A DNA stretch of 64,000 bases from Thermodesulfobacteriota bacterium (GTDB taxonomy: Bacteria > Desulfobacterota_D > UBA1144 > Nemesobacterales > UBA2774), in NCBI GenBank assembly GCA_965223335.1, contig OZ244991.1, forward strand, positions 324,137 to 388,136, read 5' to 3'. A program made the translations under genes and the position numbers. Shown here piece by piece: positions 4,118 to 48,610 of the stretch; the first letter of the stretch is position 1; every line of letters begins with the position of its first letter. Below the pieces are notes generated by a model. The model was not told where the DNA came from. It was given only the letters and a program-made list of their open reading frames with translations, and did no database searches.

Positions 4118-4146
4118 TATAATCACCTATGTTCAGCGATGCATAT

Positions 4147-27712: not shown

Positions 27713-27745
27713 GACCAGCTGATTTCGTAAATACCTCATTCGTTA

Positions 27746-27790
27746 CCCACATCCGATGACTGGCATCGTCGGATGTGGGTTTCATTTTTT
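27746..27790 (+). terminator. Rho-independent terminator
   Basis: Stem cccacatccgatga (27746-59) / tcgtcggatgtggg (27766-79), followed by tttcatttttt. Confidence 0.8.
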
Positions 27791-29187: not shown

Positions 29188-30726
29188 TTAGTAACGCATC
29201 TGAATGTCGAACAACAAGCTATAGTCCGCAATATCCTTTGCGGGCCCATGTACAGGGATTTGTACCGCAACCCCGGGGCTGTACTTATTGCCGAACCTTA
29301 TTCCCGGCGCTATATACAGGTCTGTCTTATCAAAGGTATCTGCTGTGGGAAACGTATAGCCGTCGAACTCAAAAAACACTGTAGGTGAAATCACTTCGAT
29401 CGGCACACTAACGCCTACGGCAGAGGAATAATTCAATTTAAGCTCGAAATCATTGCTCTCCAGATTCTTTGCGTTGAATATGAAGTCGGAACTCACACTG
29501 CCCTGAAGACTGAAAGCCCCCTTCCATAGTGCAGCGGATAGATAGGGAGAAGCACTAAAAGCCTGGTACAGGTAATCGGGAACATTCTTGCGGTATTTCA
29601 CGACCTGCTGCAAACGGTCTTGGCTATCTGTAAATGACGTAGGGGTATAAAGATCTAAGCCCCCTGTAAAAAGAAAGTTTCTCGATTTTGCTAATATATG
29701 CTTGGCCCCTAACACTATGTTTCCGAGTTCATAACCGTCCCGTACCCTGATATCGCCGTCATCCACATTGTTTATACCACCGTATGGTATACGCAGATAG
29801 AATGAAAATAACTGGCTTTTATCAGGGAACTCGATTCTGATCGGATAGAGAATAAACTCACCGTTTAAGCCCTCTTTAAGTACCTGTATCTCAAACTGTA
29901 TCCCAATCCTGCCAAGCGGCATGGCAGGTTCGAAGAATAGCGGATATGCTAGGTCTATCCCCTTACCCTTGCTCGGGCTTATTGTAAACGGGCCCTGGAA
30001 CTCAAACGATCCCGACACAGGGTTTATGAGACCGAATTTTCTGTCCTTGGTGTAGATCCTAGAGGTATTGGCCAAATAAGCGGCAAACACAGCCAGTTGG
30101 TTATCCTGCTCTATAAGCCAGTCCGACAGTTTCTCGAAACCGTAGCCAAGCGGCACACCCACAAGTGGGGTAGAGATCAGGTCCTGGGCCGAGGGTCTAA
30201 TCGCCGGGCCTTCAATTGCGTATTCGAAAAGCGTGCTTTGGATAGCAGAACCGAGCGCCGATGCCCAAAAACTATGCCCCCTTGCCCTGTAGTACTGATA
30301 CGAGACCATCCCGAAAAACGGGTGGAGCACCCAGTTGGTAAACCACGCGTCACCGTCCTCCCACACAGGTCCATCGGTAATATTATCCCACCATTTTGAG
30401 AACGAGGAATCAAAAATCTTGACGTTTTTGTCCCTAACATAATAGAGCCTAACCGCCCATGAGGCACCGTAGTATATCGCGGTGTCCTTCATGTAGGCAC
30501 CGAAACCCGGGGGTTTTAGGTCATCTATGTCCGGAGACTCAGCTTTGGGGACTTCCGATGCTTGATTCTCGTCTACCGAATGCTGCTCGGGATCATAAAA
30601 CACATACCTGTCCAAGGGATCGGCCGACACGTTGCCGGTATTACAAACTGTAAAGAGGATAAAAGCCGATAAGATGTATAAAGCTACTCTCAGCACCGAT
30701 ACTTTCTCCGCCGCAATTCGAAACAC
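29188..30726 (-). CDS. Outer-membrane protein: DUF3943-like N-terminal domain + C-terminal beta-barrel (paralog 1)
   Basis: Signal peptide. Conserved block WWDNI..W.DGD.F.N...HP..G..Y...R..GH..W.S..GS...S.LFEY..EG. C-terminal LFDIQMRY ends in an aromatic residue. The start is uncertain (GTG 30726 or GTG 30696). Confidence 0.65.
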   Translation of the reverse strand: MFRIAAEKVSVLRVALYILSAFILFTVCNTGNVSADPLDRYVFYDPEQHSVDENQASEVPKAESPDIDDLKPPGFGAYMKDTAIYYGASWAVRLYYVRDKNVKIFDSSFSKWWDNITDGPVWEDGDAWFTNWVLHPFFGMVSYQYYRARGHSFWASALGSAIQSTLFEYAIEGPAIRPSAQDLISTPLVGVPLGYGFEKLSDWLIEQDNQLAVFAAYLANTSRIYTKDRKFGLINPVSGSFEFQGPFTISPSKGKGIDLAYPLFFEPAMPLGRIGIQFEIQVLKEGLNGEFILYPIRIEFPDKSQLFSFYLRIPYGGINNVDDGDIRVRDGYELGNIVLGAKHILAKSRNFLFTGGLDLYTPTSFTDSQDRLQQVVKYRKNVPDYLYQAFSASPYLSAALWKGAFSLQGSVSSDFIFNAKNLESNDFELKLNYSSAVGVSVPIEVISPTVFFEFDGYTFPTADTFDKTDLYIAPGIRFGNKYSPGVAVQIPVHGPAKDIADYSLLFDIQMRY

Positions 30727-30882
30727 AGTTTAGTTCTGAGGGATTTATTTAAGGTATCCTCCGAAATTACTACCTCCCCCCTCAAAACCAAATTCTAACC
30801 ACAATTCGTCTAAAATGAAAGTTTAATAACTATAATTGTCTGTGTCTTTCATTGGTTATAAAGGCGGCATTAAACCCACTGG

Positions 30883-32394
30883 CTAAAACCTGAGCTGAAA
30901 ATCAAATAGGTAGCTTATGCGAGCTACATCGGTTGAGGGACCCGACATTGGGAGCTGGACCGCAAATCCTGGGCTGTACTTTTTCCAGAGCCTAATACCG
31001 GATGTAAAGAAGTAATCGTTTTTCCCGAATGTGTCTGCAGTTAGCTGCGAATAACCGTTAAACTCGGCAAACAGAACAGGTGATGTAGGTATGGGGATAT
31101 TGGCACCCACAGCAGCATGGTATTTAAGTCTAAACTCAAAGTTGTTGCCCTCTAGGTTCCTTGCGTTAAATACCCAGTCAGTCCCCACATTGGCCTGTAA
31201 GCTAAGGAAATTCTTCCACACAGCCCCCGACAGATAAGGGCTAAACGTAGTCGCACCCTTTAGGTGCAGGGGATAATTCCTCCTAAACAATATTACGGTC
31301 TGAAGCCTATCGATGTTGTCTTTATACGCAGTGGGTAATATCAGATCGGTCCCCGCAGTTAATACAAAGTTACGCGACTTTGCAAGCATGTGCTTGCCAC
31401 CGATCAGCAAGTTGGCAAACTCAAAACCGTCATTTATGACCTCTTCCCCTATAACCACACTGTTTACACCAGCCTGTTGAATCTGAACATATAGTCCCCA
31501 GAGAGTGTTCTTAGACGGCAGGTCGACACGTACAGAGTAAAAAATAAACTCACCATGATCTAGAGACCGCTTTAGGTTAACTACCTCAAGGTCTGCAGTT
31601 GCCCTCCCAATAGGGATTGGCTCTTCAAAGAACAGAGGATATGAGAGCATTATCGCCTCGGATTTATTGGGTGTGAAATCAATCGGGCCGCTTATCGACA
31701 TAAAACTCTTGGCAAGCGGGTTATAAACCCCGAACTGCCTGTCCTTAATAAAGTTACGCATCGGGTTTACAATATGGCCCGCAATCTTTGCCGGCACAAA
31801 ATCTGTCTCGACCAGCCAGTCAGAGGCCTCATAAAACACAAACCCCATAGGTGCACCTATGAGTGGTGTGAATATAAGGTCTTTCATCGACGGGGTCTCC
31901 ACTATGCCCTCTACCGTGTACTCAAACAAAGTGCTCATTAGAACAGAGCCCAGAGCCGAAACCCACTCGTCATGCCCGAGGGTCCGGTACCACAGGTAGT
32001 ACTGTGCGCCTATAATTGGATGCACCACGAAATTTGTGAAAGTTGAGTCCCCATCATCCCATTCGGGCCACTTTGTAATATTGTCCCACCAATCAGATAA
32101 CGATGTATTGAATATCCTGCTGTTTTTGTTCCTGACATAAAAGAACCTCACAGCCCATAACCCTAGATACCCAGCCCCTGTGTCGCGCAAAAATTCCTTT
32201 GTGCCGAGTGACTGCTTCGCAGCCTCCGAGAGTTCCGTATTATCGTTGCTATTATTTGTTAGCTCCGAGGCAAGCGAATACCGCGAATGCGAGTATTCCA
32301 GCAGATCATCCACCGTAATGTCATTGGCTGCAAATGCCACGCATTCCGATACCAATAGAAATAGTATTGCCAATATTAGAGAAATAGACCTCAC
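30883..32394 (-). CDS. Outer-membrane protein: DUF3943-like domain + beta-barrel (paralog 2)
   Basis: About 50% identical by eye to 29188-30726. C-terminus is LFDFQLRF. The start is set to GTG 32394 (AGGAGAG upstream), immediately before the signal peptide. The track ORF extends to TTG 32466. Confidence 0.65.
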   Translation of the reverse strand: MRSISLILAILFLLVSECVAFAANDITVDDLLEYSHSRYSLASELTNNSNDNTELSEAAKQSLGTKEFLRDTGAGYLGLWAVRFFYVRNKNSRIFNTSLSDWWDNITKWPEWDDGDSTFTNFVVHPIIGAQYYLWYRTLGHDEWVSALGSVLMSTLFEYTVEGIVETPSMKDLIFTPLIGAPMGFVFYEASDWLVETDFVPAKIAGHIVNPMRNFIKDRQFGVYNPLAKSFMSISGPIDFTPNKSEAIMLSYPLFFEEPIPIGRATADLEVVNLKRSLDHGEFIFYSVRVDLPSKNTLWGLYVQIQQAGVNSVVIGEEVINDGFEFANLLIGGKHMLAKSRNFVLTAGTDLILPTAYKDNIDRLQTVILFRRNYPLHLKGATTFSPYLSGAVWKNFLSLQANVGTDWVFNARNLEGNNFEFRLKYHAAVGANIPIPTSPVLFAEFNGYSQLTADTFGKNDYFFTSGIRLWKKYSPGFAVQLPMSGPSTDVARISYLFDFQLRF

Positions 32395-32488
32395 TCTACT
32401 CTCCTGCGTAAATAGAGATATATTATATAAACAATTTAGATCAAATTGGGGATGAAGGATACACAAAAAGCATCTTATTTAAAGAGTA

Positions 32489-33646
32489 TTACTTAATACC
32501 AAGCAATCTCTTAGCCCTAGCTTCCCACGTATACCTCCTAGCATCCTCCCCTGCTTTCTTTCCTACCTCCTCAGCTAACGTACTGTTGTTTATTGCCGAT
32601 TCCACTCCCTCAGCAAATGCCTCGCTACTATCGGGTTCAACAACTATTGCGTTCTCCCCGTCGGTCAAGATCTCCAATACAGACGGGATCCCGGTAGCCA
32701 CTATCGGGCGAGCTGCCGCCATATACTCAAATAACTTTATAGGGGACGTAAAATCCGTTGCCCTGGTCCCGTCTTTAATAGTCATCTGTGATGTGTAGGG
32801 CATTACAAGCACATCAGCTGCACTTAAATATGTCGGCACGTCCGCATGCGGCACAAAACCGATGAACCAAACATTATTAAGCCCCTTTGAGTCCACTAAG
32901 CGTGTGTACCTGTCGATGTCCGTATCCAGCCCCCCGACTATAACAAACAGTGCCTGGGGCAGTCGTGATGCAGTATCGATTATCAGCTCTATCCCCCTAC
33001 CTGCGTAGATGTTGCCCGAGTAACACACAATTGTTTTGTCTTGGGGCAAGCCGACTCTATTCCTTGCATCGGTTTTAGGCGGCAGTTCGGTGTAGGCTTC
33101 GAGATCTACTCCGTTTGGAGCTACCATGAGTTTATCTTCGCTTAGTCCCTCATTCACATAAATTTGTCCAAGCCCCTTTGAGTTTGTGCTGAACCTCACG
33201 AGGTGCTCCGAGTCTTTAAACGCCCTAAACATAAAACTTGCCCCTTTAACCAGGGGATGATGAGCATCGTAAACTGTAGGTATGTTGAAATACATAGTTG
33301 ATAAATATGTATAAACAATATTTCTTGTAATTACCAAATCAAATTTTTGCCTGTTCCTCTTAGTATATATCGAGCATGTAATACCGTGGTATATATTCCT
33401 CAGTGATGCGTTATCGAAATAGCGGAACTTAACTATCTCAAAATCCTGCCCGACCCCATAGTACTCGTAAATATCTATATCACTCTGCTTATACGGGATC
33501 AACAGTGTTACCTCAATCCCCATTCGGCTCATTGCACTGCACATTTTCATTATATGCACAGCACTGGCCCCTTTGGTAAAAAGTGGGGGACTTCCAACAT
33601 AAAACACTCTTTTAATCTGAGTCATCATAACAGGATTTTGTCTCAC
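32489..33646 (-). CDS. Glycosyltransferase family 4 (GT-B fold)
   Basis: C-terminal E-x7-E region PIKLFEYMAAARPIVATGIPSVLEIL and the GRG loop YAGRGIELI. Confidence 0.8.
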   Translation of the reverse strand: MRQNPVMMTQIKRVFYVGSPPLFTKGASAVHIMKMCSAMSRMGIEVTLLIPYKQSDIDIYEYYGVGQDFEIVKFRYFDNASLRNIYHGITCSIYTKRNRQKFDLVITRNIVYTYLSTMYFNIPTVYDAHHPLVKGASFMFRAFKDSEHLVRFSTNSKGLGQIYVNEGLSEDKLMVAPNGVDLEAYTELPPKTDARNRVGLPQDKTIVCYSGNIYAGRGIELIIDTASRLPQALFVIVGGLDTDIDRYTRLVDSKGLNNVWFIGFVPHADVPTYLSAADVLVMPYTSQMTIKDGTRATDFTSPIKLFEYMAAARPIVATGIPSVLEILTDGENAIVVEPDSSEAFAEGVESAINNSTLAEEVGKKAGEDARRYTWEARAKRLLGIK

Positions 33647-35061: not shown

Positions 35062-35580
35062 CTATTTGGGCTTGTTCACAACCTTATAGTCCTCAATGAA
35101 CAGGTCAACAAGCTCGCCCAAGGCCTTGCCCACACACTCGTTTAAAACCTCGGGGCTACAGGAAAACAGCTTGCCCACACTCCACGTAGAGCCCGTGGTG
35201 GATATACTCTCGCCCAGTTTTGTCCCCATTATTACTATGGCCCGGTTAAGGTCTATATCTATGTACACAGCGTAGTAATTCTCAGACTCCGATTTACTCG
35301 CAATCACCTTTATGTACAGGTAAGAACCCCCAAATACATTAAACCACTTCCTCTCCTCGAGCACATTAATATCGGCGTCGCGCAGTCTGTTTTCGACAAA
35401 TTGCCTTAGCCCCTCTTTGCTAAGCCCGTCTGCAGAGGCTGAGTCAGAGATCTCTTCCAGTATCACCGCGGTTCCCGTAACCCCCCTAAGCGTAGCACTG
35501 CTCGGGAGTGGGTATGCCAGCTTCGCACACAGACCAAAAACAAACAAGCTCATCAGTAGCATTGAGAACAGTTTTATCAT
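35062..35580 (-). CDS. Hypothetical secreted protein
   Basis: 172 aa with signal peptide MIKLFSMLLMSLFVFGLCAKLA. 137 nt downstream of the giant gene on the same strand. Confidence 0.5.
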   Translation of the reverse strand: MIKLFSMLLMSLFVFGLCAKLAYPLPSSATLRGVTGTAVILEEISDSASADGLSKEGLRQFVENRLRDADINVLEERKWFNVFGGSYLYIKVIASKSESENYYAVYIDIDLNRAIVIMGTKLGESISTTGSTWSVGKLFSCSPEVLNECVGKALGELVDLFIEDYKVVNKPK

Positions 35581-35717: not shown

Positions 35718-38700
35718 TTACTTCTTTCGCGAGAAATCATGGAGTAGGTTTAGGTTTGTGGTTACGAGGTCGTGTACATCGGGAAAATCCTTTTTCGTAA
35801 AAACCTTAAGCGCCTCGTTATAAGCCTCGATCGCTTTTTCGCAATTCCCAGCCTTGTTTTGAATCTCTGCAAGTGTGGTATATGCCCCACCTATGTTGTT
35901 TTGGGTAGTCGCGTACTGCATGGGGTATTGCTCTATTGTGTAGATAATAAGTGCTGTTTCGTAGGCCTTAATCGCTTTTTTACAGTTCCTAGCCTTATCC
36001 TCCGATTCGGCCAAGGTCCTATAAACCACACCTAAGTTGTTCTGTGTACCCGCAAATTGAATCGGAAACTGTTGAATGGAGCGCACCTTGAGTGCTTCCT
36101 CGTATGATTTTATGGCCTTTTTGCAGTTTGCAGTCTTCTCCTCTACATCGGCAAGGGTCCTAAATGCTGTGCCCAGGTTGTTTTGTGTCGAGCCGTACTG
36201 TACCGGGTATTCATCCTTGTTATACACCCTAAGTGATTCGTTATAGGCTTTTATAGCCCTTTTACAGTTCTTGCCCTTATCCAGGGCTTCGGCAAGGGTC
36301 CTGTAAATGACCCCAATGTTGTTCTGCGTGGCAGCATACTCAACCGGGTATTCGTTTACGGTGTAGAATTTGAGTGTTTGTTCATAAGCCTTTATGGACC
36401 TCTTGCAATTGTTCTCGGTATCCTCATACTCAGCAAGGCTCTTATAGAGTGCTCCAAGGTAATCCTGAATAGTAGCATACTCGTCTGGGTAACTCTGGAG
36501 GCTGTAATAATTTGTGCATAACTCATATGCCTCACACGCTTTTTTACAGTTTGCTATTCGGTCCTCCCATTCTGCAAGCGCCCTGTATATATGGCCTATG
36601 TTCCTGTTAATAAGCCCGTAGTCTGCGAGCGAGGTCTCGGGGGTATAGACCTTCAATGCGTCTGTGTACTCAGAGATGGCATTATGATAGTTCTCTTTTA
36701 CCTGCTCGCCGTTCTCGGCAAGTTTACCGTATGCTATTCCGGTATATTTTTTTATCTCTCCATACTCCAGCGGGTTCGTGCTTCTTTTATAAATTTTAAG
36801 CGACTCACGATACGCATTCGTGGCCCTGATATAGTTGGCAATCTCTCCCTCGACTTCTGCAATAATGCTCGAGGCAAGCCCCACATTCTTTTGCACGGCA
36901 CCGTATTCTGCGGGGAATTTATCAGGATCGAAAACTTGGAGCGTCAGCATATAAGAGGTCACAGCCTCTTTATAATGTGTGATCTCTCCCTCAATCTCAG
37001 CAAGTGTGATTAAGATGTCGCCAATATTTTTTTGAATTACACCGAACACAAACGGCGATTTGCCGACTGAGTAAATCTTTAGCGATTCGGTGTAGCAATC
37101 GATCGCCTTTCTCATTTTCTTAATGTCGCTATCGGTCTTGGAATACATATGATACGTATAGCCCAGGTTACGATATACCAACCCGTACTGTGTAGGGTAG
37201 TCGGCTCTATTATAGACCTTTAACGACTCCTCATAGGATTTGATCGATTTCCTAAAAGCATTGGGTTTGGCCCCTTCCTCTGCGATCTTTCGGTATGAAT
37301 TTGCAATCTTATAATGTGCGTCTGCAAATTCTTCGGGCGAGGTCTCAACATCGAGTGATTTGAGCGCATTTTCGTGGAACTGAATAGCTTCTTTGGGATC
37401 CGCAAACTCCTCTGACTCCGCTTGATCGGGCATCTCGGCACTATCGCGCACAGCCTGTTCGGTTGTTTTCTCTACTGTAATGGTCTTTGTGTCTGAAGCA
37501 GCTTTTTTCCTCCTCCGCTCTTTTACCTCTTTTAATTCCACAACTTCTGCAATCTCTTCTTTTTTTGTTTCCGTTTCTTTTTTGTCGGGTGAAGGGATTT
37601 TTGCGGCACGTAAAGATGCTACGGCTTCTTTGGCTTTGTTGTAGACCGACTCGGCATCGTTGTGCAAATCAGGGCTGTCCTTTTTGTTATAAACCAATAG
37701 CGCCTGCCGAGAGGCCTTGAGTACATTGTTGTAGAGTGTCGGGCTTTGATCGAGTTCGGCTAATTGAAGGTAGAGGTTTGAGAGTTTGTACTGCACAAAT
37801 CCATAATCTTCAGGTGAGTTATCTAATGTATAGAATTCCAGTGCTTGCTCGTAGGAACTGATGGCTTTTTGAATATTATTTTTGGAACTCTCTGTTTTCA
37901 GGAGCTCAGTATAGGCAGTGCCTAGGTTCTTATGGGCACACGCAAACTCCTCTGGGCTATCCTCGAGGTTATATCTCTCGGCGGCTTTCTCATAGAATAC
38001 TATATCATTGCCTTCCTCAGACAACACATTTTCCAAGACAATAGGTTCTTCCTCATTCTTGACTTCTTCTGCACGTAACTGCTCGAGGACCTCGTTTGAG
38101 TTCGTTATCCACTCGCGAACTTTTGCCAGTGTATCCTTGTCGGTAATTACTTTTTCCGCTTCCTCAAATGCATCGAGAGCCTTGGTGTGGTTCTCCTCCT
38201 TTTTATCCTCATCCGTGATTGAGCAGAGTGCTATCCCCAGCATAAGTTTTGTCAGTGCATACTCTTGTTCATCCTTTTGGTCCTTATAGTGCTTGAGTGC
38301 CGAGTTATAGTACTCAACGGCCTCATTGTACTTGGAGTGATCTTTATCGCTTGAGGCCTGTGCGCTGTAGGCATCGCCAAGGCGCTTTGAGATCGATGCG
38401 AACCTAAGCGGCATAACTTTTGGGTCTAGTAGTTCCAGTGTTTCTTTTAAAATAGCGAGCTCTTTATCCGGGTCTTTATGGGCCGTTTCAGAGATTAATA
38501 CGAATCTTTCTATGATTTGATCATAAAGCTCAGGGGCATGTTTCTCTAGATTGTGGGTGTTGTAAGCACCAAGTGCATCACGCACATGGCCAAGAGCTGC
38601 CTCGTTATCGTTTGAGTCCTGCGAGCTTTCGGAAAGTCCTAAATAAGCCACTGTGAGCTTTTTAGATACCGAGTCGTAGGGCTCGGGCTCTTTGTCATGG

Positions 38701-41700
38701 TCTAGGTTTTGAAGCACGCTATTGTAATATTCCACGGCCTCGATCAGGTTCGAAGACCTGTCCTTGCTATCGGTATGATTTACGAGTGTATCGGCTAATC
38801 TAAGCTCTAGCCCCCCATAAATCTTAGCCATTGTGCTTTTATCACAAAGAGTTAAAAGTACTTTATAGATCCCGATCTCTTTAACCCTGTCTTTGTGCTC
38901 AACTGAAGAAATCGCATCGCTAAAATCACTTAGATCTTGATCAATCCCCATTTTTTCGGGATCTAGCCCGGCTGATGCAAATGCTTGATATGCATTGTTA
39001 AAGGCTTTAACAGAGTTTATTAAATCCTTGGGCTCACCCTTCTGCTTAGCACAAAGTGCATGTGCCCGCCCAAGCCTACTTTGAGTAAGACCAAAATCCC
39101 CGGGGTTGTGGTCTTCCGTAACATACCCGCTAACGCTTTCGAGATACCTAACGGCATCGGCAGCTTTGTTGTCTCTCAGACACTGCTCTGCCACACGCAT
39201 ATGCAGGTTTCCCAGATTCGTTTTGATACTATCAATATCATCAGCAGCTTCGGCTTCGAGAACCTTATTGTAGTATCCAACAGCACTCGTAAAGTTGTCG
39301 TGTTCACCACTCGTTTCGAATAACTCTTTTTGAATATCCCCTAGTCGCGTGCAAAGTGCGCTATGCTCAACCGCCATCTGAGACTCATCCGTAATCTCGA
39401 GCACACTCTCCAAGAGATCAGTTGAATGCTCTCCTGCTTCTATCTCTTTCTCTAAAACGGTTTTAACAAGACTCTTTATGCCTTCGATTACCTCTTGATA
39501 TTTCTCTGGCTCGTTTTCTTCACTGTACACACTTAGTGAATTCTTATACGCTTCAATTTCGTTTGTTATGTAATCGGATTTAGTATTTAGCTCATTTAGC
39601 AACCCGTAACTATGAGCGATCTGTTTTTGTATCTGGGCGTACTGCTCGGGGTATTTTTCCTGTGTATAGAGGTTTAGTGCCTCGCCTAATGCATCGATAC
39701 CCCCGGTTAATTTGTCTATATCCTTTGCGGACTCCCCTTCCGATAACAACAGTTCCCCTATTATTTTCGTTATCTCTGCATAGTCCTCGGGGTGATCACT
39801 CGAATTATAGAACTCGAGTGCGTCCCGATACCTTGATACTGCTGAGTCTAGGGACTCATCCCGACCGAGTTGGGCAGCAGCTTCAACATAAAGATCCCCC
39901 ACCACACGGTTCACATTTCCCAGCGTTTGCTCTTTGGTGTCTTTAGCCTTGGCTGCGGTGGCTGCCTCATAGAACTGAATGGCACTTAGGTAATCATCTT
40001 TATTCCCTGACTCCCTGGCAAGATCGGTGTATAGGGAACCGAGCTTGATTTGCACCGATTCCAGGTTCTCGCACATAGCATCCACATCAAATTTTTCCAA
40101 GATCTGTTTGTAAAGCAAAACCAGATCATCACTCTCAAGTTCAAGCCCGTTTAACAATTCCACTACCCGTTTTAGTGCAAACGAGATATTCTCCAATCCA
40201 ACTTCATTTTTATCCGCCTCATATGCCACAAGCGCACCGTGGTATGCGTTTAGCGCGTCTGATATGTGGCTCTTATCCTTAGTTCCTTTGGCTTGGTTGG
40301 AGTAAGAGTCCCCAAGGGCCTCTTGAATAGATGCGTAGTTGTCCGGGTGATTGTCTCTATCAAATATCTCAAGGGCCCTAACAAGATACTCCCTGCCCTG
40401 TTCGTATGCATCTTTTTCGACATGGCTTATCCCCGCTTCCAGCAAGGCGTTGCCGAGGCTCTTCTGAGACTCAGTATGCTCTGCACTATCCAAATCCTTA
40501 GCACTTAAATCCCGCGCCTTTTCATAATGCTCCACAGCCCGCTCACTGTTACTCGCGAACTCCTCTTGTCGTGATAGCGTAATATAGGCGTTGCCCATCC
40601 GCAGATGAATACCGGCATGCTCTAGGGGTTGATCACTATCAGCGTAATAATCGAGGCAGTCCGTAAAATTCTCGAGCGCTAATTTATATCTTTCTACATC
40701 ATTTTCCTTCTCGGCAATTAATGCATAGATAGAGCCGATCTCTTTTTTAAGCAGTGCATATTCATCAGGATAATCGTCCTTTCCGTAAACTTTAAGGGCT
40801 TCCTCGTAGGCCTCTATGGCCATTGTACTGTTTTCCACTAAGCCCTTCTCGTCCTCAAACAATCGGTACACGTCACCCAGCTTCTTTAGCGTTGCCGCAT
40901 ACTCAACCGGGGAGTGCTCAATATCGTAGCTCTTTAGTGCTTTTTCATAGAAGCTAATCGCTTGGTAGGGATCGCTTAACTCTGTTTCCCCAACCAGTTC
41001 ATAGCTCTTAGCCAAGAGTTTCTGCAATTCCATGTGCCCTGCGGGGTATTTATCTTCGGTAAACACACCTAGTGATTCCTCAAGATACTGGGCAACTTGA
41101 GTGAGATTAACATCTTGCTCTCGATCCTCATACAATTCCAGATACGCATAACCTAAACCCATATTGATAAACCCATAATTAAGAGGCGAGGCATCTTTAT
41201 CGCATTGCTCCAAAGCGGCTTTTAGCTCTGATATTGCCGCCTCATAGCTATGAGTCTTATGTTCGTGCTCAGCTATGGATAGATAAGCAATGCCAAGATT
41301 CTGCTTTAGCTGCATCCGTGTTGCTTTCAGAGTGTCCTTGGGTTGGGAGCTATCTAACTCTTTATACAGATTAAGAGCTTCTTTGTAACCCTCGGACTCT
41401 TGAGTGCACCAAGCACGCATCAGATGCGTAGAAGCAATATCCATTTCAATCGAACTCTGTTTAGACTCCGCAGCGACCTCGGAATAGATCTCTTTTGCAT
41501 CACTGAGTGCAGTCAAAGAGGTTTTGAAACCCTCCTCTGACGAACACTCTGTTGCAGCGCTTCGTGTATCGAGCCCGATATTTCTATTTAATAACGCTTC
41601 TCGGTACCTATATCCCTCGGCACTGTAAACATCCAAAGAAGATTTGTAGTAATCCAGAGACTTATTAATCCCCTCACTCTCATGGCCGTCTGATAATGAT

Positions 41701-44700
41701 GAGTTCACTACACCGAGGCTATTTTGCGCCCGGGCCCGATCAAGCTCGAACCCCTTATCCTCGTATATATCGAGACTCTGTTCCAGCATCCCATGTGCTT
41801 CCTCGAGATGTTCGGTAGAACTCTCGAGCACAGATAAACCATGTTTTGAGATTGCGAGGTTTGACAAAATGTCGGCTCTCAGCAATTCGTCGTTACCGCT
41901 TTTCACGCTGTTTAGTGCTTGGCTAAGCAGTTGATCAGCCAACTGTGTATCCTTAGAGGACGCTTCTATGGACGATAGGAAATTATGAGCTGCACCCAAA
42001 TTACTCTTTACCGTAGCGCACTTACGTGGATAGCCCTCTATCTCGGGAGTATCTAGAACTTCGTTTAGAATCTCTATGGACTTTTTACAGTTTTTTACAC
42101 TGTCCTCGCAATCGGCCAGTGTTAGGTATGCGGCACCCAGGTTATTACGAATCTTTAGATGGTTAATCACACTATCACCAGAGTCATACTCCCTAAGGGC
42201 CCTCTCGTAGGCCTGAATGGCCTTTCTACTGTTCTTTGCCCTATCCGTTTTTTCGGCCAATGACCTGTAGATATTGCCCAGATTGTTTAGTATCAGAGCC
42301 GAGTATTTTTCGTTGCCCTCTCCATCCAATACTCTAAGAGCATCCTCATATGAGGCCTCGGCCATATCTATTGACTTGGTCTCTTTAGAGATTCTTGCAA
42401 TGTATGAGTAATTTAGGCCCAGTTTGCACTTAAGCTCCCCGTAATCCTCGGGAAAATCGCTCTCGGTAGAGATCTCGAGCGCGGATAAATAGTAGTCAAT
42501 CGATTTCTCAAACTGCTCCAAATCCAGTTTGTATATACCCAGATTTCTATAGATATCGCCTAAATTACTGCAGATCATTGCGTATTGGAGAGGATAATCA
42601 CCAAAAGTATAAAATTTGAGAGCGTTCTCATAGCATTCAATAGCGTCATCAAAATTCCCAGATTCGCTTTGAGCACGGTAAAGCTTTTGTAAAGCAAGGC
42701 CCATGTTGAATTGGATCATGCCAAATTTATCAGGGTAGTCCTCCGAGACATAAACCCTAATTGCCTCTTTATATGAATCTATAGCTTTACTCGAGTTGTG
42801 GGCCTCATCCTCAACATCCGCAAGTGTGCTGTATGCAACACCCAGATTGTTATGGGTCATTGCATAATCCAATGGTGCCTCCTCTATGTTCCTTATCTTA
42901 AGGGATTCTTCATAAGCCTTAATAGCCCTCTTTGAGTTCTCCGCAGCACCGTGTAGTTCGGCAAGCGTGCTGTAAGCGTTGCCCAAATTGTTGTAGGTAG
43001 TCGAGTATTCTTGGGGATATTTGCCAAGGGTATATATCTCTAAAGCCTCACGATAACACCCAATGGCCTTAGTGCAATTAGCGCTATCGTTCTCAATCTG
43101 AGCCAGCATGTCATATGCGGCACCCATATTATTTAGGAGAGATGCATATTCAGCGGTCGATTTATTTTTCTTATAGTAGTTGTATGCAGTGGTATATGAT
43201 TTGATAGCGTCCACACAATTTGCACCCTCACCCTCATACTCGGCTAAAGTCCTGTAGGCATCGCCAAGCAGTTTTGACACAAATGCGTACTGCTCTTTAT
43301 TTTTAAGAGCCTTGTACTGATGCATCGCCTTTTTGTAGGAATCGATTGCTTGCGAGATGTTACTTGCAATGGGTCCGTTGTGTTCAAGCAAGAGGTAAAT
43401 ATCACCTAAGGTTCTTAGTAGCCCTGCACTCTCTTCTTTTTCATCCAAAGCATTAAAAACATCTAAAGCGCTGTTTAGCACCTCGATTGACTCTATTAGC
43501 TGATTCTCTCCCCCGGTGTCTTGTTCACGCGAGAGTTTAAACTGTGCAATCCCCAAGTCTCTGGTTATGGTTGCAAAATCCAATGGATAGTTGTCTTTGT
43601 TAAAATAAGTTAGAGCATCACTAAAGTCTTCAAGTGCAGTCTTTGCGTAATCATTATTTGGTTCCGCCTCTACAAGTGAGATGTGCACATTGCCTTTATT
43701 TCTTTTGATGTCTGCGCATTCGTACGGATTATTACCGGTGATATAAAACTCCAGAGCACTATCGTATGCCGCGAGCGCATTGTTGTAGTTCTCAACCGGG
43801 TTCTCTGCCAACGCCAGCGTTGTAAACGATAGGGCTAGGTTTTGGTTTATTATTGCGTTTATCATAGGGTCTAAGTCACTGGACAATGCGGATTTGTAGT
43901 AAGTAATAGCTTTTTTACAGTTCCTAGTTCTATTGCGGTCAAAGCCTTGTATGGTGTGAGCAAGACCCAAATTGTTATTTATATGAGTGTGAATTGCGGG
44001 GAATTGTTCTTTTGTAAAATAGCCTAGTGCATTCTCGTAATGCTCAATTGCAATATCACAGTTTTCACTCCTGGAACTATACGCAGCCAAAAGCACATAG
44101 AGATCAGCAATATTGCGTCTCGTATTAGACACTACGTCCTCGGCGTGGTCTTCGTTCTCTATAATTCTCGTGAGCAGCCCTAATGCTTTACGATACAATT
44201 TAATTCTTTGCTCGGCACTACAGTCTTCTTCTTTCGCAAGTTCTCTATAGAGATAGCCCAAAAAACTGTTTATTTGCCAAGGCATATCGCTTTTAATTCT
44301 GCTCTCTATGCCCTTTAGCCTTTTTACTATCTTATCCAGCTGATCTACGTTAAAACCTTTTTCATCAAAGTAGATCTCGGACAGTTCGAATGCCAAGTCG
44401 CTGGATTGATTGGTCTTATTCTTGTTTATATTCTTAACCGTTGATAAAGCGTCAACCAGATAGACCTCGATGGTATGGCGTATATATTTAGGCAAATAAT
44501 GGGATATACGCTCGTATGGGCTACCCTGTTCGCTTGATCTAAGGTCGCTATCGACAGTGATTGTTGGGAAGCTGTCGGTCTGGGTTAAGTTAGAGATAAA
44601 GGTTTTTGTTAAACCGGTATCATCACTTTGTTGCGTATGCGATTCGTCTGAGCTAAGAGCCGTTTTTTCATCCTGAATAGTAAGTACGGATGTGTTGTTG

Positions 44701-44996
44701 CCCCTAAGAAAACCGTACTCATATAAAAGTGCCGGGCTATAACCGTCTAGCACCAAAATCCCCAAAGCCGTGTCGGTCGCAAGTTTTTCAAACCGCTCCC
44801 TAAATTGACTGGGGCTAGTATTTTTTTCGGTTATGGATTCAACCTTAAACCCATACGACGACAGGACATCTCTAAGAGGGTTTACAATTTCATTTACATA
44901 CTCTACGTCGCTATGGTCGGGGTGTACGATAAGGCAGGGAATCTCGCCTTGAGTAATCAGCTTGTTTATTGCATTTAGACTTCGGTTCGCTTTCAT
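35718..44996 (-). CDS. Giant (3092 aa) TPR-like repeat protein with N-terminal Rossmann/TIR-like domain
   Basis: Uninterrupted 9279-nt ORF. Most of the length is ~47-aa helical-hairpin repeats with consensus N(C/S)xKAIxxYEEALK(I/V)Yxx..YP..YA.TQNNLG.AY..LA. No signal peptide, TM segment or convincing Walker A seen. Confidence 0.9.
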   Translation of the reverse strand: MKANRSLNAINKLITQGEIPCLIVHPDHSDVEYVNEIVNPLRDVLSSYGFKVESITEKNTSPSQFRERFEKLATDTALGILVLDGYSPALLYEYGFLRGNNTSVLTIQDEKTALSSDESHTQQSDDTGLTKTFISNLTQTDSFPTITVDSDLRSSEQGSPYERISHYLPKYIRHTIEVYLVDALSTVKNINKNKTNQSSDLAFELSEIYFDEKGFNVDQLDKIVKRLKGIESRIKSDMPWQINSFLGYLYRELAKEEDCSAEQRIKLYRKALGLLTRIIENEDHAEDVVSNTRRNIADLYVLLAAYSSRSENCDIAIEHYENALGYFTKEQFPAIHTHINNNLGLAHTIQGFDRNRTRNCKKAITYYKSALSSDLDPMINAIINQNLALSFTTLALAENPVENYNNALAAYDSALEFYITGNNPYECADIKRNKGNVHISLVEAEPNNDYAKTALEDFSDALTYFNKDNYPLDFATITRDLGIAQFKLSREQDTGGENQLIESIEVLNSALDVFNALDEKEESAGLLRTLGDIYLLLEHNGPIASNISQAIDSYKKAMHQYKALKNKEQYAFVSKLLGDAYRTLAEYEGEGANCVDAIKSYTTAYNYYKKNKSTAEYASLLNNMGAAYDMLAQIENDSANCTKAIGCYREALEIYTLGKYPQEYSTTYNNLGNAYSTLAELHGAAENSKRAIKAYEESLKIRNIEEAPLDYAMTHNNLGVAYSTLADVEDEAHNSSKAIDSYKEAIRVYVSEDYPDKFGMIQFNMGLALQKLYRAQSESGNFDDAIECYENALKFYTFGDYPLQYAMICSNLGDIYRNLGIYKLDLEQFEKSIDYYLSALEISTESDFPEDYGELKCKLGLNYSYIARISKETKSIDMAEASYEDALRVLDGEGNEKYSALILNNLGNIYRSLAEKTDRAKNSRKAIQAYERALREYDSGDSVINHLKIRNNLGAAYLTLADCEDSVKNCKKSIEILNEVLDTPEIEGYPRKCATVKSNLGAAHNFLSSIEASSKDTQLADQLLSQALNSVKSGNDELLRADILSNLAISKHGLSVLESSTEHLEEAHGMLEQSLDIYEDKGFELDRARAQNSLGVVNSSLSDGHESEGINKSLDYYKSSLDVYSAEGYRYREALLNRNIGLDTRSAATECSSEEGFKTSLTALSDAKEIYSEVAAESKQSSIEMDIASTHLMRAWCTQESEGYKEALNLYKELDSSQPKDTLKATRMQLKQNLGIAYLSIAEHEHKTHSYEAAISELKAALEQCDKDASPLNYGFINMGLGYAYLELYEDREQDVNLTQVAQYLEESLGVFTEDKYPAGHMELQKLLAKSYELVGETELSDPYQAISFYEKALKSYDIEHSPVEYAATLKKLGDVYRLFEDEKGLVENSTMAIEAYEEALKVYGKDDYPDEYALLKKEIGSIYALIAEKENDVERYKLALENFTDCLDYYADSDQPLEHAGIHLRMGNAYITLSRQEEFASNSERAVEHYEKARDLSAKDLDSAEHTESQKSLGNALLEAGISHVEKDAYEQGREYLVRALEIFDRDNHPDNYASIQEALGDSYSNQAKGTKDKSHISDALNAYHGALVAYEADKNEVGLENISFALKRVVELLNGLELESDDLVLLYKQILEKFDVDAMCENLESVQIKLGSLYTDLARESGNKDDYLSAIQFYEAATAAKAKDTKEQTLGNVNRVVGDLYVEAAAQLGRDESLDSAVSRYRDALEFYNSSDHPEDYAEITKIIGELLLSEGESAKDIDKLTGGIDALGEALNLYTQEKYPEQYAQIQKQIAHSYGLLNELNTKSDYITNEIEAYKNSLSVYSEENEPEKYQEVIEGIKSLVKTVLEKEIEAGEHSTDLLESVLEITDESQMAVEHSALCTRLGDIQKELFETSGEHDNFTSAVGYYNKVLEAEAADDIDSIKTNLGNLHMRVAEQCLRDNKAADAVRYLESVSGYVTEDHNPGDFGLTQSRLGRAHALCAKQKGEPKDLINSVKAFNNAYQAFASAGLDPEKMGIDQDLSDFSDAISSVEHKDRVKEIGIYKVLLTLCDKSTMAKIYGGLELRLADTLVNHTDSKDRSSNLIEAVEYYNSVLQNLDHDKEPEPYDSVSKKLTVAYLGLSESSQDSNDNEAALGHVRDALGAYNTHNLEKHAPELYDQIIERFVLISETAHKDPDKELAILKETLELLDPKVMPLRFASISKRLGDAYSAQASSDKDHSKYNEAVEYYNSALKHYKDQKDEQEYALTKLMLGIALCSITDEDKKEENHTKALDAFEEAEKVITDKDTLAKVREWITNSNEVLEQLRAEEVKNEEEPIVLENVLSEEGNDIVFYEKAAERYNLEDSPEEFACAHKNLGTAYTELLKTESSKNNIQKAISSYEQALEFYTLDNSPEDYGFVQYKLSNLYLQLAELDQSPTLYNNVLKASRQALLVYNKKDSPDLHNDAESVYNKAKEAVASLRAAKIPSPDKKETETKKEEIAEVVELKEVKERRRKKAASDTKTITVEKTTEQAVRDSAEMPDQAESEEFADPKEAIQFHENALKSLDVETSPEEFADAHYKIANSYRKIAEEGAKPNAFRKSIKSYEESLKVYNRADYPTQYGLVYRNLGYTYHMYSKTDSDIKKMRKAIDCYTESLKIYSVGKSPFVFGVIQKNIGDILITLAEIEGEITHYKEAVTSYMLTLQVFDPDKFPAEYGAVQKNVGLASSIIAEVEGEIANYIRATNAYRESLKIYKRSTNPLEYGEIKKYTGIAYGKLAENGEQVKENYHNAISEYTDALKVYTPETSLADYGLINRNIGHIYRALAEWEDRIANCKKACEAYELCTNYYSLQSYPDEYATIQDYLGALYKSLAEYEDTENNCKRSIKAYEQTLKFYTVNEYPVEYAATQNNIGVIYRTLAEALDKGKNCKRAIKAYNESLRVYNKDEYPVQYGSTQNNLGTAFRTLADVEEKTANCKKAIKSYEEALKVRSIQQFPIQFAGTQNNLGVVYRTLAESEDKARNCKKAIKAYETALIIYTIEQYPMQYATTQNNIGGAYTTLAEIQNKAGNCEKAIEAYNEALKVFTKKDFPDVHDLVTTNLNLLHDFSRKK
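35740..37410 (-). repeat. C-terminal block of about 12 well-conserved ~141-bp (47-aa) coding repeats
   Basis: Consecutive units KNCKRAIKAYNESLRVYNKDEYPVQYGSTQNNLGTAFRTLADVEE, ANCKKAIKSYEEALKVRSIQQFPIQFAGTQNNLGVVYRTLAESED and so on. The DNA shows the same period, but copies are diverged. Confidence 0.8.
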
Positions 44997-45151
44997 TTAT
45001 CTGATTATATAGCGCAAAACAATTTCCATTCAACTATTAATTATACACAGGGGGTGGCAATACAAAATTAAAGAATTACTAATTTTTACAGCTAGTTACA
45101 CGGCACGAAGAGAACAAATATCAGGGGTAGTTTGGAACATAAAACTACATA

Positions 45152-45184
45152 GAAGCGGGGTTATGAGTATCCGAATCCCGCTTC
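45152..45184 (-). promoter_or_regulatory. Hairpin directly 3' of the aptamer (candidate expression platform/terminator)
   Basis: RNA GAAGCGGGAUU..AACCCCGCUUC forms an ~11-bp stem, followed by UAUGUAGUUUUAUGUU. Confidence 0.45.
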
Positions 45185-45280
45185 GGCAACCCAGCCGCCG
45201 ACTAGTGCTTATCCAAGCACCTTAGGCCTGTGGTTTTGCGTCCCATCTTTTCAGATGGTTTGCCCCTTCGTTCCGGGACC
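45181..45280 (-). promoter_or_regulatory. c-di-GMP-I (GEMM-I) riboswitch aptamer
   Basis: The minus-strand RNA ..GGGGCAAACCAUCUGAAAAGAUGGGACGCAAAACCACAGGCCUAAGG...GGCUGGGUUGCCGAAG matches the remembered Vc2 aptamer core block by block: GGGCAAACC, GAAA-capped P2, GGGACGCAAA, GGCCUAA, GGGUUxCCGA. Confidence 0.8.
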
Positions 45281-45298
45281 ACCAACTCCCTTATACAA

Positions 45299-45327
45299 AC
45301 CTTATAGCTAGTTTCTATTTGTGTCAA
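45299..45327 (-). promoter_or_regulatory. Sigma70-type promoter driving the riboswitch leader
   Basis: Minus strand: TTGACA (45327-22), 17-nt spacer, TAAGGT (45304-299). The predicted TSS is about 10-15 nt before the aptamer. Confidence 0.45.
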
Positions 45328-45347
45328 TACAACCTACCTGCAACATT

Positions 45348-45379
45348 AAAAAAACTACCCCCTGACCCCGGTCGGTCGG
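45348..45379 (-). terminator. Candidate terminator of the zinc-ribbon gene
   Basis: Minus-strand CCGACC-GACCGG-GGTCAGG hairpin (one bulge), followed by GGGTAGTTTTTTT. Confidence 0.4.
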
Positions 45380-45438
45380 TTGCAATTCCCAGCTGGAAAG
45401 ATCGGTTTATTCAATACGCACCGAACATTACGATTAAA

Positions 45439-45876
45439 TCAAACACCATCGACTTTTTTAAAGCACTTACTACAGAACTCGCTGCCGCTAACAATCTGGT
45501 TGCCGCACTCACACGTGCCCATTATTTCAGGTTTGGAAAGGGCTTTTAATCTCCCAAGCGCTTTTTGGGCATCCTGGTGTACAAGCTCGAGTTCCTCTCT
45601 GCATCTGTCGATCTCTTCATATATCTGCTCGATCTCCTTACATTTCTCCATTACACCGTCTTCGTTTATCTTGCCCTTATACTTGTACATCTTATAGACC
45701 AAATTCCCGACGGCCTCGGTACTTGTCCTTCTGCGTTTAGATAGGCTACGTATCCGGTTTTTTATTCTTATCACCCCATACGCCTCTTTAGACCTTATAT
45801 TTACAATCCTCAACCCCCTCCCAATACCTACCTTTATTTTGTCCAGTATCTCATTCGGTTCGTTTATATCTGTCAT
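45439..45876 (-). CDS. Hypothetical coiled-coil protein with C-terminal zinc-ribbon
   Basis: 145 aa with a basic/coiled-coil middle. C-terminal CECGNQIVSGSEFCSKC (CxC..CxxC). Confidence 0.6.
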   Translation of the reverse strand: MTDINEPNEILDKIKVGIGRGLRIVNIRSKEAYGVIRIKNRIRSLSKRRRTSTEAVGNLVYKMYKYKGKINEDGVMEKCKEIEQIYEEIDRCREELELVHQDAQKALGRLKALSKPEIMGTCECGNQIVSGSEFCSKCFKKVDGV

Positions 45877-46186: not shown

Positions 46187-48610
46187 ATGTTTATAGAGAT
46201 AAAACGAATGAGGGAATATAACGCACCGCAGTTTTTTCTATATATAATTGTAGCTGTACTGCTTGTTTCTGGGTTTGCATACCCAAACCAGGCACTTGCT
46301 GATGACGAGTACGAAATCAGTAGACTATTTGCAGCAACTGAGGACCCCGACCCCAAAGTACGCGCCAAAGCACTCCAGCAGATCTCGAAATTAGACGCCC
46401 AAGAGCATATACCCGCGCTCATAGAACTTTTGAACAATAACGATGAAATATATACCATAAACAATGTCTTGGGTGCTCTGGGATCAATGGGCAAAGCCTC
46501 GGAGGCACAGGTCCCTATAATTGCAAAGTACTTAACACACGAGGATAAACGTACCAGGAGTACCGCACTACAGGCGCTTGGACAAATAGGCCGACTGAGC
46601 AACAAACAAGCCGCCCCGCTTATAGCACTGCTTAAAGACCCCAATGTTGCAATAAGGATGGCCGCTTCGAGACAGATAGGTTCCAACCCCGATATTTTTA
46701 AGCAGCACTTACCCAAGATAGTAAAATTGCTAGGCGACGAGAACCCCGATATAAAAACGGCAGCACTAGTTGCATTAGGACAGCTAGGCACCGTATCGTC
46801 GGGCTATAAATCCAAGATTGCAAAACTCACACAAGACGAAAACCCCACGGTCCGTTCAAGTGCGGCTGTGGCACTGGCCGCTATCGGAAACCTTTCTGAG
46901 AGCCAGCTCGATACAATTGTACAACTCACCAACGACAAGGAGAGTTCGGTTAAGGTCCAGGCCATCAATTCACTTGGGATACTAGGGAAAGAAGCCTCGG
47001 CCCAGGCACCAATCGTAATAAGCAACCTTAAGGACAGCAGGAAAAAAGTGCGTTTCGCCGCTACCGATGCGTTGGGAAAGATTGCGAAACAAGACCCTGA
47101 GGTCACTAAATCCGTTGCTAAACTCCTCACAAACCAAAACTACTCAACCCGAGCATTGGGTCTGATAGCACTCAGTGATGTGGGTGAATCGGCAGGGGCT
47201 TACGCCGGGGACGTTGCCAAGAACCTTAAGGACCCCAATATGATAGTCCGTACCTCAGCCCTATCTGTACTATCCAGTATCGGGGAGCAGGGTTATGAGT
47301 ACGCGCCCGATGTGGCAGCGCTACTGGAATCAGAAAATACAAACTTGGCAAAAATCGCTTTGAGCACATTAATAAACATGAAAGGTCCAGCTGGTGATTA
47401 TGCCTCCAACTACTCAGCCCTCTTAACCACACACGACAAACTGCTCAGACTAAACGCCGCCATTGCTTTGGCCAGCATAGGGGACAAAGCAATCCCGGAA
47501 ATCCCCAATATAGTAGAGTTATTGAAAAACCGCGAGATAAAATTTAGAAAAATGGCCTCTTACACCTTGGGGCGTATGGGTGAGCACGCTTCTAGTGCTG
47601 GGCCAATAATCGCAGAGCTACTCAGCGATCCTAACCCCGTGATTCGCTCCTCGGCACTCGATGCACTCGGTAAAATGGGTAAACACGCCACAGATCAAGT
47701 CCCGTCCATCACCCCGCTTCTAGACGATCCCGATAGAGACGTTCGAGCCGATGCGGCGCTAGCACTAGGTCTCATAGGCTCGCTAACCGATGCACAAATC
47801 GACTCCATTGCCAATCTTCTTAATGATAAAGAGAGGGTTGTGCGTGCGAATGCAGCCGAGGCACTGGGCAACCTAAACAAGTCGGCATCGGGCCATGCCC
47901 AAGAAGTAGCGGCACTGCTTAATGACCCCTACCCCCTTGCCAACACAAATGCCGCAAGGACACTTGGGAGTATAGGTATTGCCGACCCCGAGATAACAAA
48001 CGCTCTAGGTCAATTCATTAAATCAAAATCAAACGACTCCGTAACTTACAGAGAAGCGCTCAACGCTGCGCTCGAGTCCCTCAGCTCTCTCGGCAACAGT
48101 GCAAATGAGCAGTCAAAGATAATTGCATCTGTGCTCTATGACCCTGAAGCGGTCATACACCCTCAAGCAAGACTCACACTACAAGACATTGCCCCCCTAG
48201 ACGATGACACAGTGCTCATGATACTGGGACTCACACACAAATACCCCCCGCAAACTGCCGATATTAGAGTGCTTGCGTACAAGATTGCAGGTGATGACCC
48301 CGACACTCTTATTCTCATCAAATGGCTTGGCAGCAGCAAAAACGAGGCTACCGCAGAACTTGCGAAAGATGAAAGAATAAAAATCATTGAGGTTCTGTCT
48401 GCAAAGCTACCTAATAGTGTAATGACCAAAGAACTAAGAGACGAAACCGCCGCTAGAATCTCGAGCCTGATTGAAACCGGCACGGCGAAATGGGCAGCCG
48501 AGGACATCGAAACAGTAGAGTCCGCAGAAACACTCCTTAGGCAGAACGGATACGTAGAGCTGGCCGATAAAGCTGCTGTTACAATTGAGAGCGTGACTAA
48601 AAACAATTAG
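46187..48610 (+). CDS. HEAT (PBS-lyase-type) repeat protein with N-terminal signal/anchor
   Basis: 807 aa. About 20+ repeats of ~31 aa (..D.d..VR..Aa.ALG.iG...a..l..lL.D..). N-terminal hydrophobic segment FFLYIIVAVLLVSGFAYPNQALA/DD. Confidence 0.8.
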   Translation: MFIEIKRMREYNAPQFFLYIIVAVLLVSGFAYPNQALADDEYEISRLFAATEDPDPKVRAKALQQISKLDAQEHIPALIELLNNNDEIYTINNVLGALGSMGKASEAQVPIIAKYLTHEDKRTRSTALQALGQIGRLSNKQAAPLIALLKDPNVAIRMAASRQIGSNPDIFKQHLPKIVKLLGDENPDIKTAALVALGQLGTVSSGYKSKIAKLTQDENPTVRSSAAVALAAIGNLSESQLDTIVQLTNDKESSVKVQAINSLGILGKEASAQAPIVISNLKDSRKKVRFAATDALGKIAKQDPEVTKSVAKLLTNQNYSTRALGLIALSDVGESAGAYAGDVAKNLKDPNMIVRTSALSVLSSIGEQGYEYAPDVAALLESENTNLAKIALSTLINMKGPAGDYASNYSALLTTHDKLLRLNAAIALASIGDKAIPEIPNIVELLKNREIKFRKMASYTLGRMGEHASSAGPIIAELLSDPNPVIRSSALDALGKMGKHATDQVPSITPLLDDPDRDVRADAALALGLIGSLTDAQIDSIANLLNDKERVVRANAAEALGNLNKSASGHAQEVAALLNDPYPLANTNAARTLGSIGIADPEITNALGQFIKSKSNDSVTYREALNAALESLSSLGNSANEQSKIIASVLYDPEAVIHPQARLTLQDIAPLDDDTVLMILGLTHKYPPQTADIRVLAYKIAGDDPDTLILIKWLGSSKNEATAELAKDERIKIIEVLSAKLPNSVMTKELRDETAARISSLIETGTAKWAAEDIETVESAETLLRQNGYVELADKAAVTIESVTKNN

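Follow-up and report, generated by a model that had tools for sequence, protein, structure and literature searches.

Riboswitches of the c-di-GMP-I class occur in many bacterial genomes, and a very large gene under c-di-GMP control would usually be expected to encode an adhesin or surface protein. The type 1 aptamer Vc2 of Vibrio cholerae (RF01051), which precedes tfoY, is a two-hairpin RNA with a GAAA tetraloop and a CCUAAG receptor side, in which A47 serves as the intercalating adenine in ligand recognition. Ligand identity is further read by G20, which contacts G-alpha at its Hoogsteen edge, and by C92, which forms a Watson-Crick pair with G-beta of c-di-GMP; the cGAMP-sensing GEMM-Ib RNAs have A at position 20 (PMC6140456). 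Both polarities of control have been described at the level of the expression platform. The GEMM-Ib RNA upstream of pilM in Geobacter metallireducens is an ON switch with mutually exclusive terminator and aptamer folds, where the terminator sequesters the C92 equivalent and ligand binding gives read-through (PMC9262584). The c-di-GMP-I riboswitch Cd1 of Clostridioides difficile is an OFF switch, whose terminator can form alongside the aptamer and in which termination is favoured by ligand binding (PMC9262584).

Here we describe a candidate riboswitch and its target gene in a 64-kb window, by which we mean the whole stretch of DNA that was analysed. The window aptamer has the two-hairpin fold of Vc2, together with its GAAA tetraloop and the CCUAAG of its receptor side; the cores GGCAAA and GACGCAAA are likewise shared, as are equivalents of G20, A47 and C92. 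It differs from Vc2 by a longer distal second hairpin, a 2-nt insertion in the 3' half of the receptor, and an unrelated downstream gene. The likeness to pilM lies in the inferred regulatory logic, as the 5' arm of a putative terminator overlaps the 3' strand of the aptamer. Whereas position 20 of the cGAMP-sensing pilM RNA is A, it is G in the window element, whose putative terminator also differs in its large loop and its poor U-tract. With Cd1 the element has in common the aptamer class, followed by a platform that would act at the level of transcription, whereas the opposite polarity is predicted because the hairpin and P1 in the window share bases. On the protein side, the closest described systems are the CAP12/Pycsar TIR-like effectors (PF10137) and the NDT/DNPH1 fold, the likeness being drawn from domain matches of the homologues, a D..P....E.G motif, and AF2 and Foldseek results. 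Unlike in the CAP12/Pycsar effectors, the head domain in the window is fused to ~2,900 aa of TPR repeats and not to a cyclic-nucleotide sensor domain. A full-text literature search with incomplete coverage returned nothing relevant that connects TPR or TIR proteins with riboswitches of the GEMM or c-di-GMP kind.

The aptamer and its predicted ligand

The aptamer is located in a 442-nt gap between the minus-strand ORFs 45876..45439 and 44996..35718, which places it in the 5' leader of the latter gene, on the same strand. It comprises the following elements.

45182..45274, minus strand: c-di-GMP-I (GEMM-I) aptamer, covering the full RF01051 model with canonical pairs
45258-45243, minus strand: tetraloop hairpin CCAUCU GAAA AGAUGG of the aptamer (RF01051 alignment)
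45235-45188, minus strand: second hairpin of the aptamer, with the receptor side CCUAAG (RF01051 alignment)

The initial annotation had proposed a GEMM-I aptamer in the leader of this 9.3-kb gene, to be checked by a search of the minus strand with RF01051. Our cmscan comparison of both strands of the whole window with the 4,227 families of Rfam 15 gave a single match at the gathering threshold. It is to RF01051, covers 45274..45182 of the minus strand and scores 72.4 bits, where the gathering score is 35 (E 2.9e-12). The alignment spans model positions 1-87 of 87 and is not truncated. A permissive rescan of positions 44900-45500 (601 nt) returned the same single RF01051 match (E 2.7e-14), and the sister models of the RF01051 clan match the aptamer with lower scores than the canonical model, which is the best in its clan.

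The 22 base pairs of the model are canonical throughout (GC:GC, CCAUCU:AGAUGG with the GAAA cap, AACC:GGUU, CAG:CUG, GCC:GGC and GUGC:GCAC), and no non-canonical marks appear in the RF01051 alignment. The invariant junction strings GGCAAA and GACGCAAA are kept, and both hairpins are recovered in an unconstrained minimum free energy (MFE) fold of 45290-45170. The single deviation concerns the 3' half of the tetraloop receptor, which reads UAGUC-GG against the consensus uAu-Gac and thus contains a 2-nt insertion; the GAAA tetraloop, which in type 1 aptamers, as a GNRA loop, docks into a receptor of the other hairpin, and the CCUAAG half are present, so that docking is a prediction for the window aptamer. 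The minus-strand letters quoted earlier for 45270-45181 agree exactly with our direct reading, and the distance of 185 nt from the aptamer to ATG 44996 was correctly given. The core motifs listed in the initial annotation (GGCAAACC, GGGACGCAAA, GGCCUAAGG and GGGUUGCCGAA), its P2 hairpin CCAUCU-GAAA-AGAUGG and its extended distal hairpin GUGCUU..AAGCAC were all found and aligned to the corresponding consensus columns. The covariance model match, at a level far beyond chance, confirms the aptamer, and we read the element as a genuine c-di-GMP riboswitch of class I (GEMM-I) and of type 1, with its GAAA tetraloop. As an RNA it does not stand out within this well-known family, and the target gene alone is unusual.

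The alignment also identifies the positions that recognize the ligand. The equivalent of Vc2 G20 is the G at 45264 (model column 11, just 5' of the first paired GC), as had been aligned by eye in the earlier work, and the equivalent of C92 is the C at 45186 (model column 83, the first C past the last helix). The A47 equivalent is contained in the AA at 45237-45236. Since all three equivalents are present, c-di-GMP is the predicted ligand and is favoured over 3'3'-cGAMP, which is also the preference that had been expressed at the outset; the A that characterizes GEMM-Ib RNAs at the G20 equivalent was not found.

Candidate promoter, proposed expression platform and alternative outputs

The elements that surround the aptamer, in the direction of transcription, are listed below.

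45348..45384, minus strand: hairpin after the upstream gene (stem -11.4 kcal/mol) with a U7 run, tail GUUUUUUUA (hairpin/U-tract scan and fold)
45322..45327, minus strand: -35 hexamer TTGACA, 6/6 matches (direct reading)
45299..45304, minus strand: -10 candidate TAAGGT, 3/6 matches to TATAAT with A2 and T6 kept (direct reading)
45274..45278, minus strand: candidate P1 5' strand UCCCG, complementary to CGGGA at 45180-45176
45176..45180, minus strand: candidate P1 3' strand CGGGA, the putative switching sequence, common to the 5' arm of the downstream hairpin
45152..45184, minus strand: terminator-like hairpin GAAGCGGG-(17 nt)-CCCGCUUC, -12.7 to -13.9 kcal/mol
45136..45151, minus strand: interrupted U-rich tail UAUGUAGUUUUAUGUU (direct reading)
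44997..45135, minus strand: rest of the leader, AT-rich, C-rich and G-poor near its 5' end, with no Shine-Dalgarno (SD) sequence (direct reading and scans)

The upstream ORF 45876..45439 has a good SD sequence and encodes a 145-aa protein with no match in PADLOC or NCBIfam. The hairpin with the U7 run at 45348..45384 is likely the terminator of this gene, isolating the riboswitch transcription unit, which makes a separate promoter for the riboswitch the most likely arrangement. The TTGACA-17-TAAGGT promoter suggested by the initial annotation is plausible. Its hexamers and 17-nt spacer are as originally read, and the aptamer begins 25 nt downstream of it; however, the -10 element is weak, and a consensus promoter scan that requires at least 4/6 matches in the -10 hexamer did not list the site. 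The window contains 6 sites of the form TTGACA-N16-18-TANNNT where 1.9 would be expected; three or more of them, including the one that precedes the riboswitch, are situated just upstream of co-directional genes. Judged from the position of the promoter, transcription would begin near 45292, which is 14 nt ahead of the candidate P1, and the aptamer would form the first third of a ~296-nt leader.

The sequences that flank the aptamer can fold in two ways. The inner CG at 45270-45269 may join the 5' strand of P1, and P1 with this CG:CG step (45270-69 : 45185-84) adds -7.8 kcal/mol to the consensus aptamer fold, the candidate helix comprising just 5+2 bp with a 3x3 internal loop. The terminator-like hairpin starts one base after C93 of the aptamer, has an 8-bp stem with 6 G-C pairs and a 17-nt loop, and forms with a pairing probability of ~1.0 in the ligand-free ensemble. 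P1 and the hairpin are mutually exclusive, as they use the same bases (45184 and 45180-45177), and the evaluated energies are -18.9 kcal/mol for the aptamer with P1 and -24.7 kcal/mol for the aptamer with the hairpin. A marginal UUGC/GUAG extension, which would bring the hairpin flush against UUUU, would also sequester the C92 equivalent; we did not rely on it, given a context-dependent gain of ~0.5 kcal/mol. The tail UAUGUAGUUUUAUGUU contains 10 U in 16 nt and is a weak U-tract, because only 5 U are among its first 9 nt. The hairpin at 45184-45152 was not reported by a built-in terminator scan limited to loops of 3-8 nt, and it did not pass a stricter custom scan for hairpins with U-tracts.

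These elements suggest the following mechanism. With its G20, A47 and C92 equivalents, the aptamer would take up c-di-GMP, which would stabilize P1, that is, the pairing of UCCCG (45278-45274) with CGGGA (45180-45176) and the CG:CG pairs beside the pocket. The candidate 3' strand of P1 doubles as the 5' arm of the stronger default hairpin (about -13 kcal/mol) that is followed by the U-rich tail. At low c-di-GMP this hairpin would terminate or attenuate transcription, and in the presence of the ligand P1 would be captured co-transcriptionally, so that RNA polymerase reads through into the giant gene and a high level of c-di-GMP would yield more of its TIR-like/TPR protein. We prefer the ON model because the layout matches that of Geobacter pilM with its exclusive aptamer and terminator folds, and we hold the step of hairpin competition, as a reasoned inference, with moderate confidence. 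As a whole, a class-I switch that is transcribed from its own promoter and turned ON by terminator competition, with increased expression of the giant gene as the output, appears to us reasonably probable.

Several other readings of the leader have to be weighed against this model. The reading that the aptamer senses another dinucleotide (3'3'-cGAMP or a variant ligand) or is a non-binding, decaying relic is very improbable. It draws on the fact that ligand specificity is here deduced from the sequence only, on the departure of the receptor 3' half from consensus (UAGUC instead of UAU) and on the lower-scoring matches of models from the same clan; however, the canonical c-di-GMP-I model tops that clan, the column of position 20 holds G and not A with the C92 and A47 equivalents retained (PMC6140456), and a relic is disfavoured by a score of twice the threshold and by base pairing that is intact at 22/22 pairs. 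A genuine c-di-GMP aptamer could also have a different output, such as Rho-dependent termination, translation or mRNA stability, maybe with OFF polarity, and the hairpin at 45184-45152 would then act as a competitor of P1 only and not as an intrinsic terminator. The weak U-tract fits such an output, as does the absence of an SD sequence before ATG 44996, and the first 78 nt past P1 are C-rich and G-poor, their C/G ratio (1.75) exceeding the 95th percentile for windows of the minus strand, a composition that is compatible with a Rho utilisation (rut) site. In the MFE fold of the full leader, moreover, the aptamer 5' half CGAAGGGGCAAAC pairs with UUUGUUCUCUUCG, ~90 nt further downstream, but this long-range pairing is not distinguishable from chance (z -1.4). 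No alternative helix joins the switching strand to the start-codon region, and the freed 3' arm of the hairpin yields no second terminator, the next hairpin having -4 to -5 kcal/mol and being followed by CCCUGAU. We regard a Rho-dependent or post-transcriptional output as unlikely, if worth keeping in view.

The remaining reading uncouples the RNA from the gene: the riboswitch transcript would mostly be a short stand-alone RNA that binds or buffers c-di-GMP, and the giant gene would be expressed leaderless from a proximal promoter. Bdellovibrio merRNA, reportedly a highly expressed and terminated GEMM-I RNA, offers a precedent for such a c-di-GMP-binding or buffering function. The ~150 nt of leader past the hairpin, which itself forms by default, hold a promoter-like site that could independently express the gene, TTGAAT-18-TATAAT (10/12 matches, 45033-45004, minus strand), which ends exactly 7 nt before the SD-less ATG 44996. 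On the other hand, promoter-like sites in the AT-rich leader barely exceed the shuffle expectation (3 found against 1.5 expected), about half of the window genes have no SD sequence anyway, and an aptamer followed by a competing hairpin and a co-directional gene is the usual cis-regulatory layout; we consider the stand-alone RNA improbable. The same part of the leader contains a 15-codon uORF (AUG UUC CAA ... GUG UAA, 45096-45140, minus strand), located just past the hairpin; it has no SD sequence and may be a chance occurrence.

The presumed target gene, its relatives and its genomic setting

Two features describe the gene downstream of the riboswitch.

35718..44996, minus strand: putatively regulated gene, encoding a 3,092-aa protein that consists nearly entirely of TPR_12-type repeats (ORF; Pfam TPR_12, 6.6e-61)
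44637..44948, minus strand: N-terminal TIR / nucleoside 2-deoxyribosyltransferase (NDT)-like domain, aa 17-120 (homologues and fold)

The start codon at 44996 is backed by family alignments, in which 10-25 residues precede a GEIPC motif. The N-terminus has no Pfam match within its first ~135 residues, nor for aa 1-257 at E<=10, and the first 200 aa have no match in PADLOC or NCBIfam. An exhaustive HMMER search of 1.84 billion representatives defined a head-domain family of 75 proteins, the closest of which is 41% identical; the longest has 1,347 aa, so that the giant protein, at 3,092 aa, is more than twice its length. The head-domain motif LDGYSPALLYEYG keeps D84, P88, E93 and G95, corresponding to the family motif LDG-x-RPN-x3-E-x-G. 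When 23 family members were scanned, PF10137 (CAP12-PCTIR_TIR) was found in 12 of them, with a best E-value of 7e-6, and PF05014 in 3 of them; most of the 23 carry TPR_12 or TPR_10 repeats.

An AF2 model of the head domain, built on the family alignment, is confident, with a pLDDT of 82.8 and a pTM of 0.78. Foldseek matched it best, within the PDB, to TIR domains from plants and bacteria and to DNPH1, NDT and the CMP N-glycosidase BcmB, with E-values from 2.6e-4 and moderate TM-scores of 0.4-0.55 on the query; at the sequence level, the domain alignment used as a profile had no significant match in the PDB. Transitive homology and the modelled fold together point to a TIR/NDT-like head domain. 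We use this name and do not assign the protein to PF10137, because the homologues alone match that family. The expected adhesin or surface protein was rejected as the target, as Pfam shows only TPR-type repeats and the N-terminus is a TIR-like α/β domain and not a signal peptide.

In word-indexed protein searches, neither aa 1-307 nor the full-length sequence of the giant protein retrieved a close homologue or one of full length, and the first 500 aa had no relatives in a genome search. Despite the repetitive nature of the protein, no tandem DNA repeats were detected in the giant gene. Metagenomic loci of the family, collected with a narrower seed alignment because the first alignment was too divergent, show the TIR-like and TPR_12 parts either fused (locus L106) or encoded by adjacent genes (L097 and L111). 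The split TIR-like/TPR_12 pair of L097 (675-4661) follows GmrSD_N and RiboL-PSP HEPN genes, a context that resembles a defence island, and that of L111 (2441-4563) is situated between ProRS and PheT, which may be compared with the window gene adjoining HisRS.

Carriage of the riboswitch does not extend to the protein family at large. By Rfam, GEMM-I was absent from 20 metagenomic loci of the family, chosen as those in which most DNA is available upstream, and strict and loose regular expressions for the GEMM-I core motif gave nothing convincing in 80 of 80 family loci, so that a family-wide association with the riboswitch was rejected. Given that none of the 80 sampled relatives has the core motif, the riboswitch may be a recent recruit in this lineage. 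The exact aptamer 45-mer is absent from 185,579 species genomes, and a 23-mer of the aptamer core was found in only two unrelated Paenibacillaceae loci. Aptamer-word, protein and genome searches likewise yielded no orthologous leader in which covariation of P1 and the hairpin could be followed. The HisRS of the window is at most 53% identical to its counterparts across the 185,579 species representatives, with the best matches in Nitrospirota and Desulfobacterota MAGs and no record of the exact sequence; close relatives of the source organism are absent from the reference collections.

With a GC content of ~45%, the window appears to be part of the chromosome of a diderm bacterium, and it encodes Omp85, an OMP beta-barrel protein, an aa3-type cytochrome oxidase, NDH-2, HisRS and fumarase. 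Among the window ORFs scanned there were no genes of CBASS or Pycsar systems. A 172-aa ORF (35062-35580, minus strand), located 137 nt downstream of the giant gene, may be co-transcribed with it. This ORF has a hydrophobic, signal-peptide-like N-terminus (MIKLFSMLLMSLFVFGLC) and no family match except for a sub-threshold PDDEXK_6 (E 0.067); PADLOC and NCBIfam gave none. Three proteins of eukaryote-like signalling or scaffold type are encoded at 3500-4126 (minus strand), 4623-5606 (minus strand) and 46187-48610 (plus strand), namely a Ras/Arf-family small GTPase, a DSP-PTPase (Tc-R-P / PTP-SAK type) and a HEAT-repeat protein; the latter (807 aa) is on the opposite strand and starts ~300 nt beyond the small ORF 45876-45439. 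Tandem DUF3943 paralogues (512 and 527 aa) adjoin a family-1 glycosyltransferase at 29188-33646 (minus strand). Two perfect and very strong hairpins with U-tracts were also seen elsewhere in the window: GCAUGAUGGAU..AUCCAUCAUGC at 2386-2441, read on both strands as a bidirectional terminator that separates ORF 569-2077 from ORF 2479-3141, and CCCACAUCCGAUGA..UCGUCGGAUGUGGG at 27745-27779 (-24.5 kcal/mol).

Implications for c-di-GMP signalling

As an RNA, the element adds one more instance to its class and nothing new on c-di-GMP sensing. Its value is that of an annotation anchor, by which an orphan gene that is otherwise hard to interpret is predicted to belong to a c-di-GMP regulon. The smaller relatives of the giant protein, with their split TIR-like/TPR gene pairs and, in one case, GmrSD and HEPN neighbours, resemble modules that pair an effector with a sensor in conflict or programmed-cell-death systems. 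Full-text literature, covered incompletely, gave no description of a TIR/NDT-like effector as a member of a c-di-GMP regulon.

That c-di-GMP directly switches on a giant TIR/NDT-like-TPR protein through this riboswitch is, taken as a complete statement, a tentative proposal to which we give rather low odds. If true, it would tie the messenger of sessility and biofilm formation to an effector that targets NAD+ or nucleotides. Should both the ON logic of the leader and an enzymatic activity of the head domain hold, the locus would provide a testable link between c-di-GMP and the biology of TIR-like effectors.
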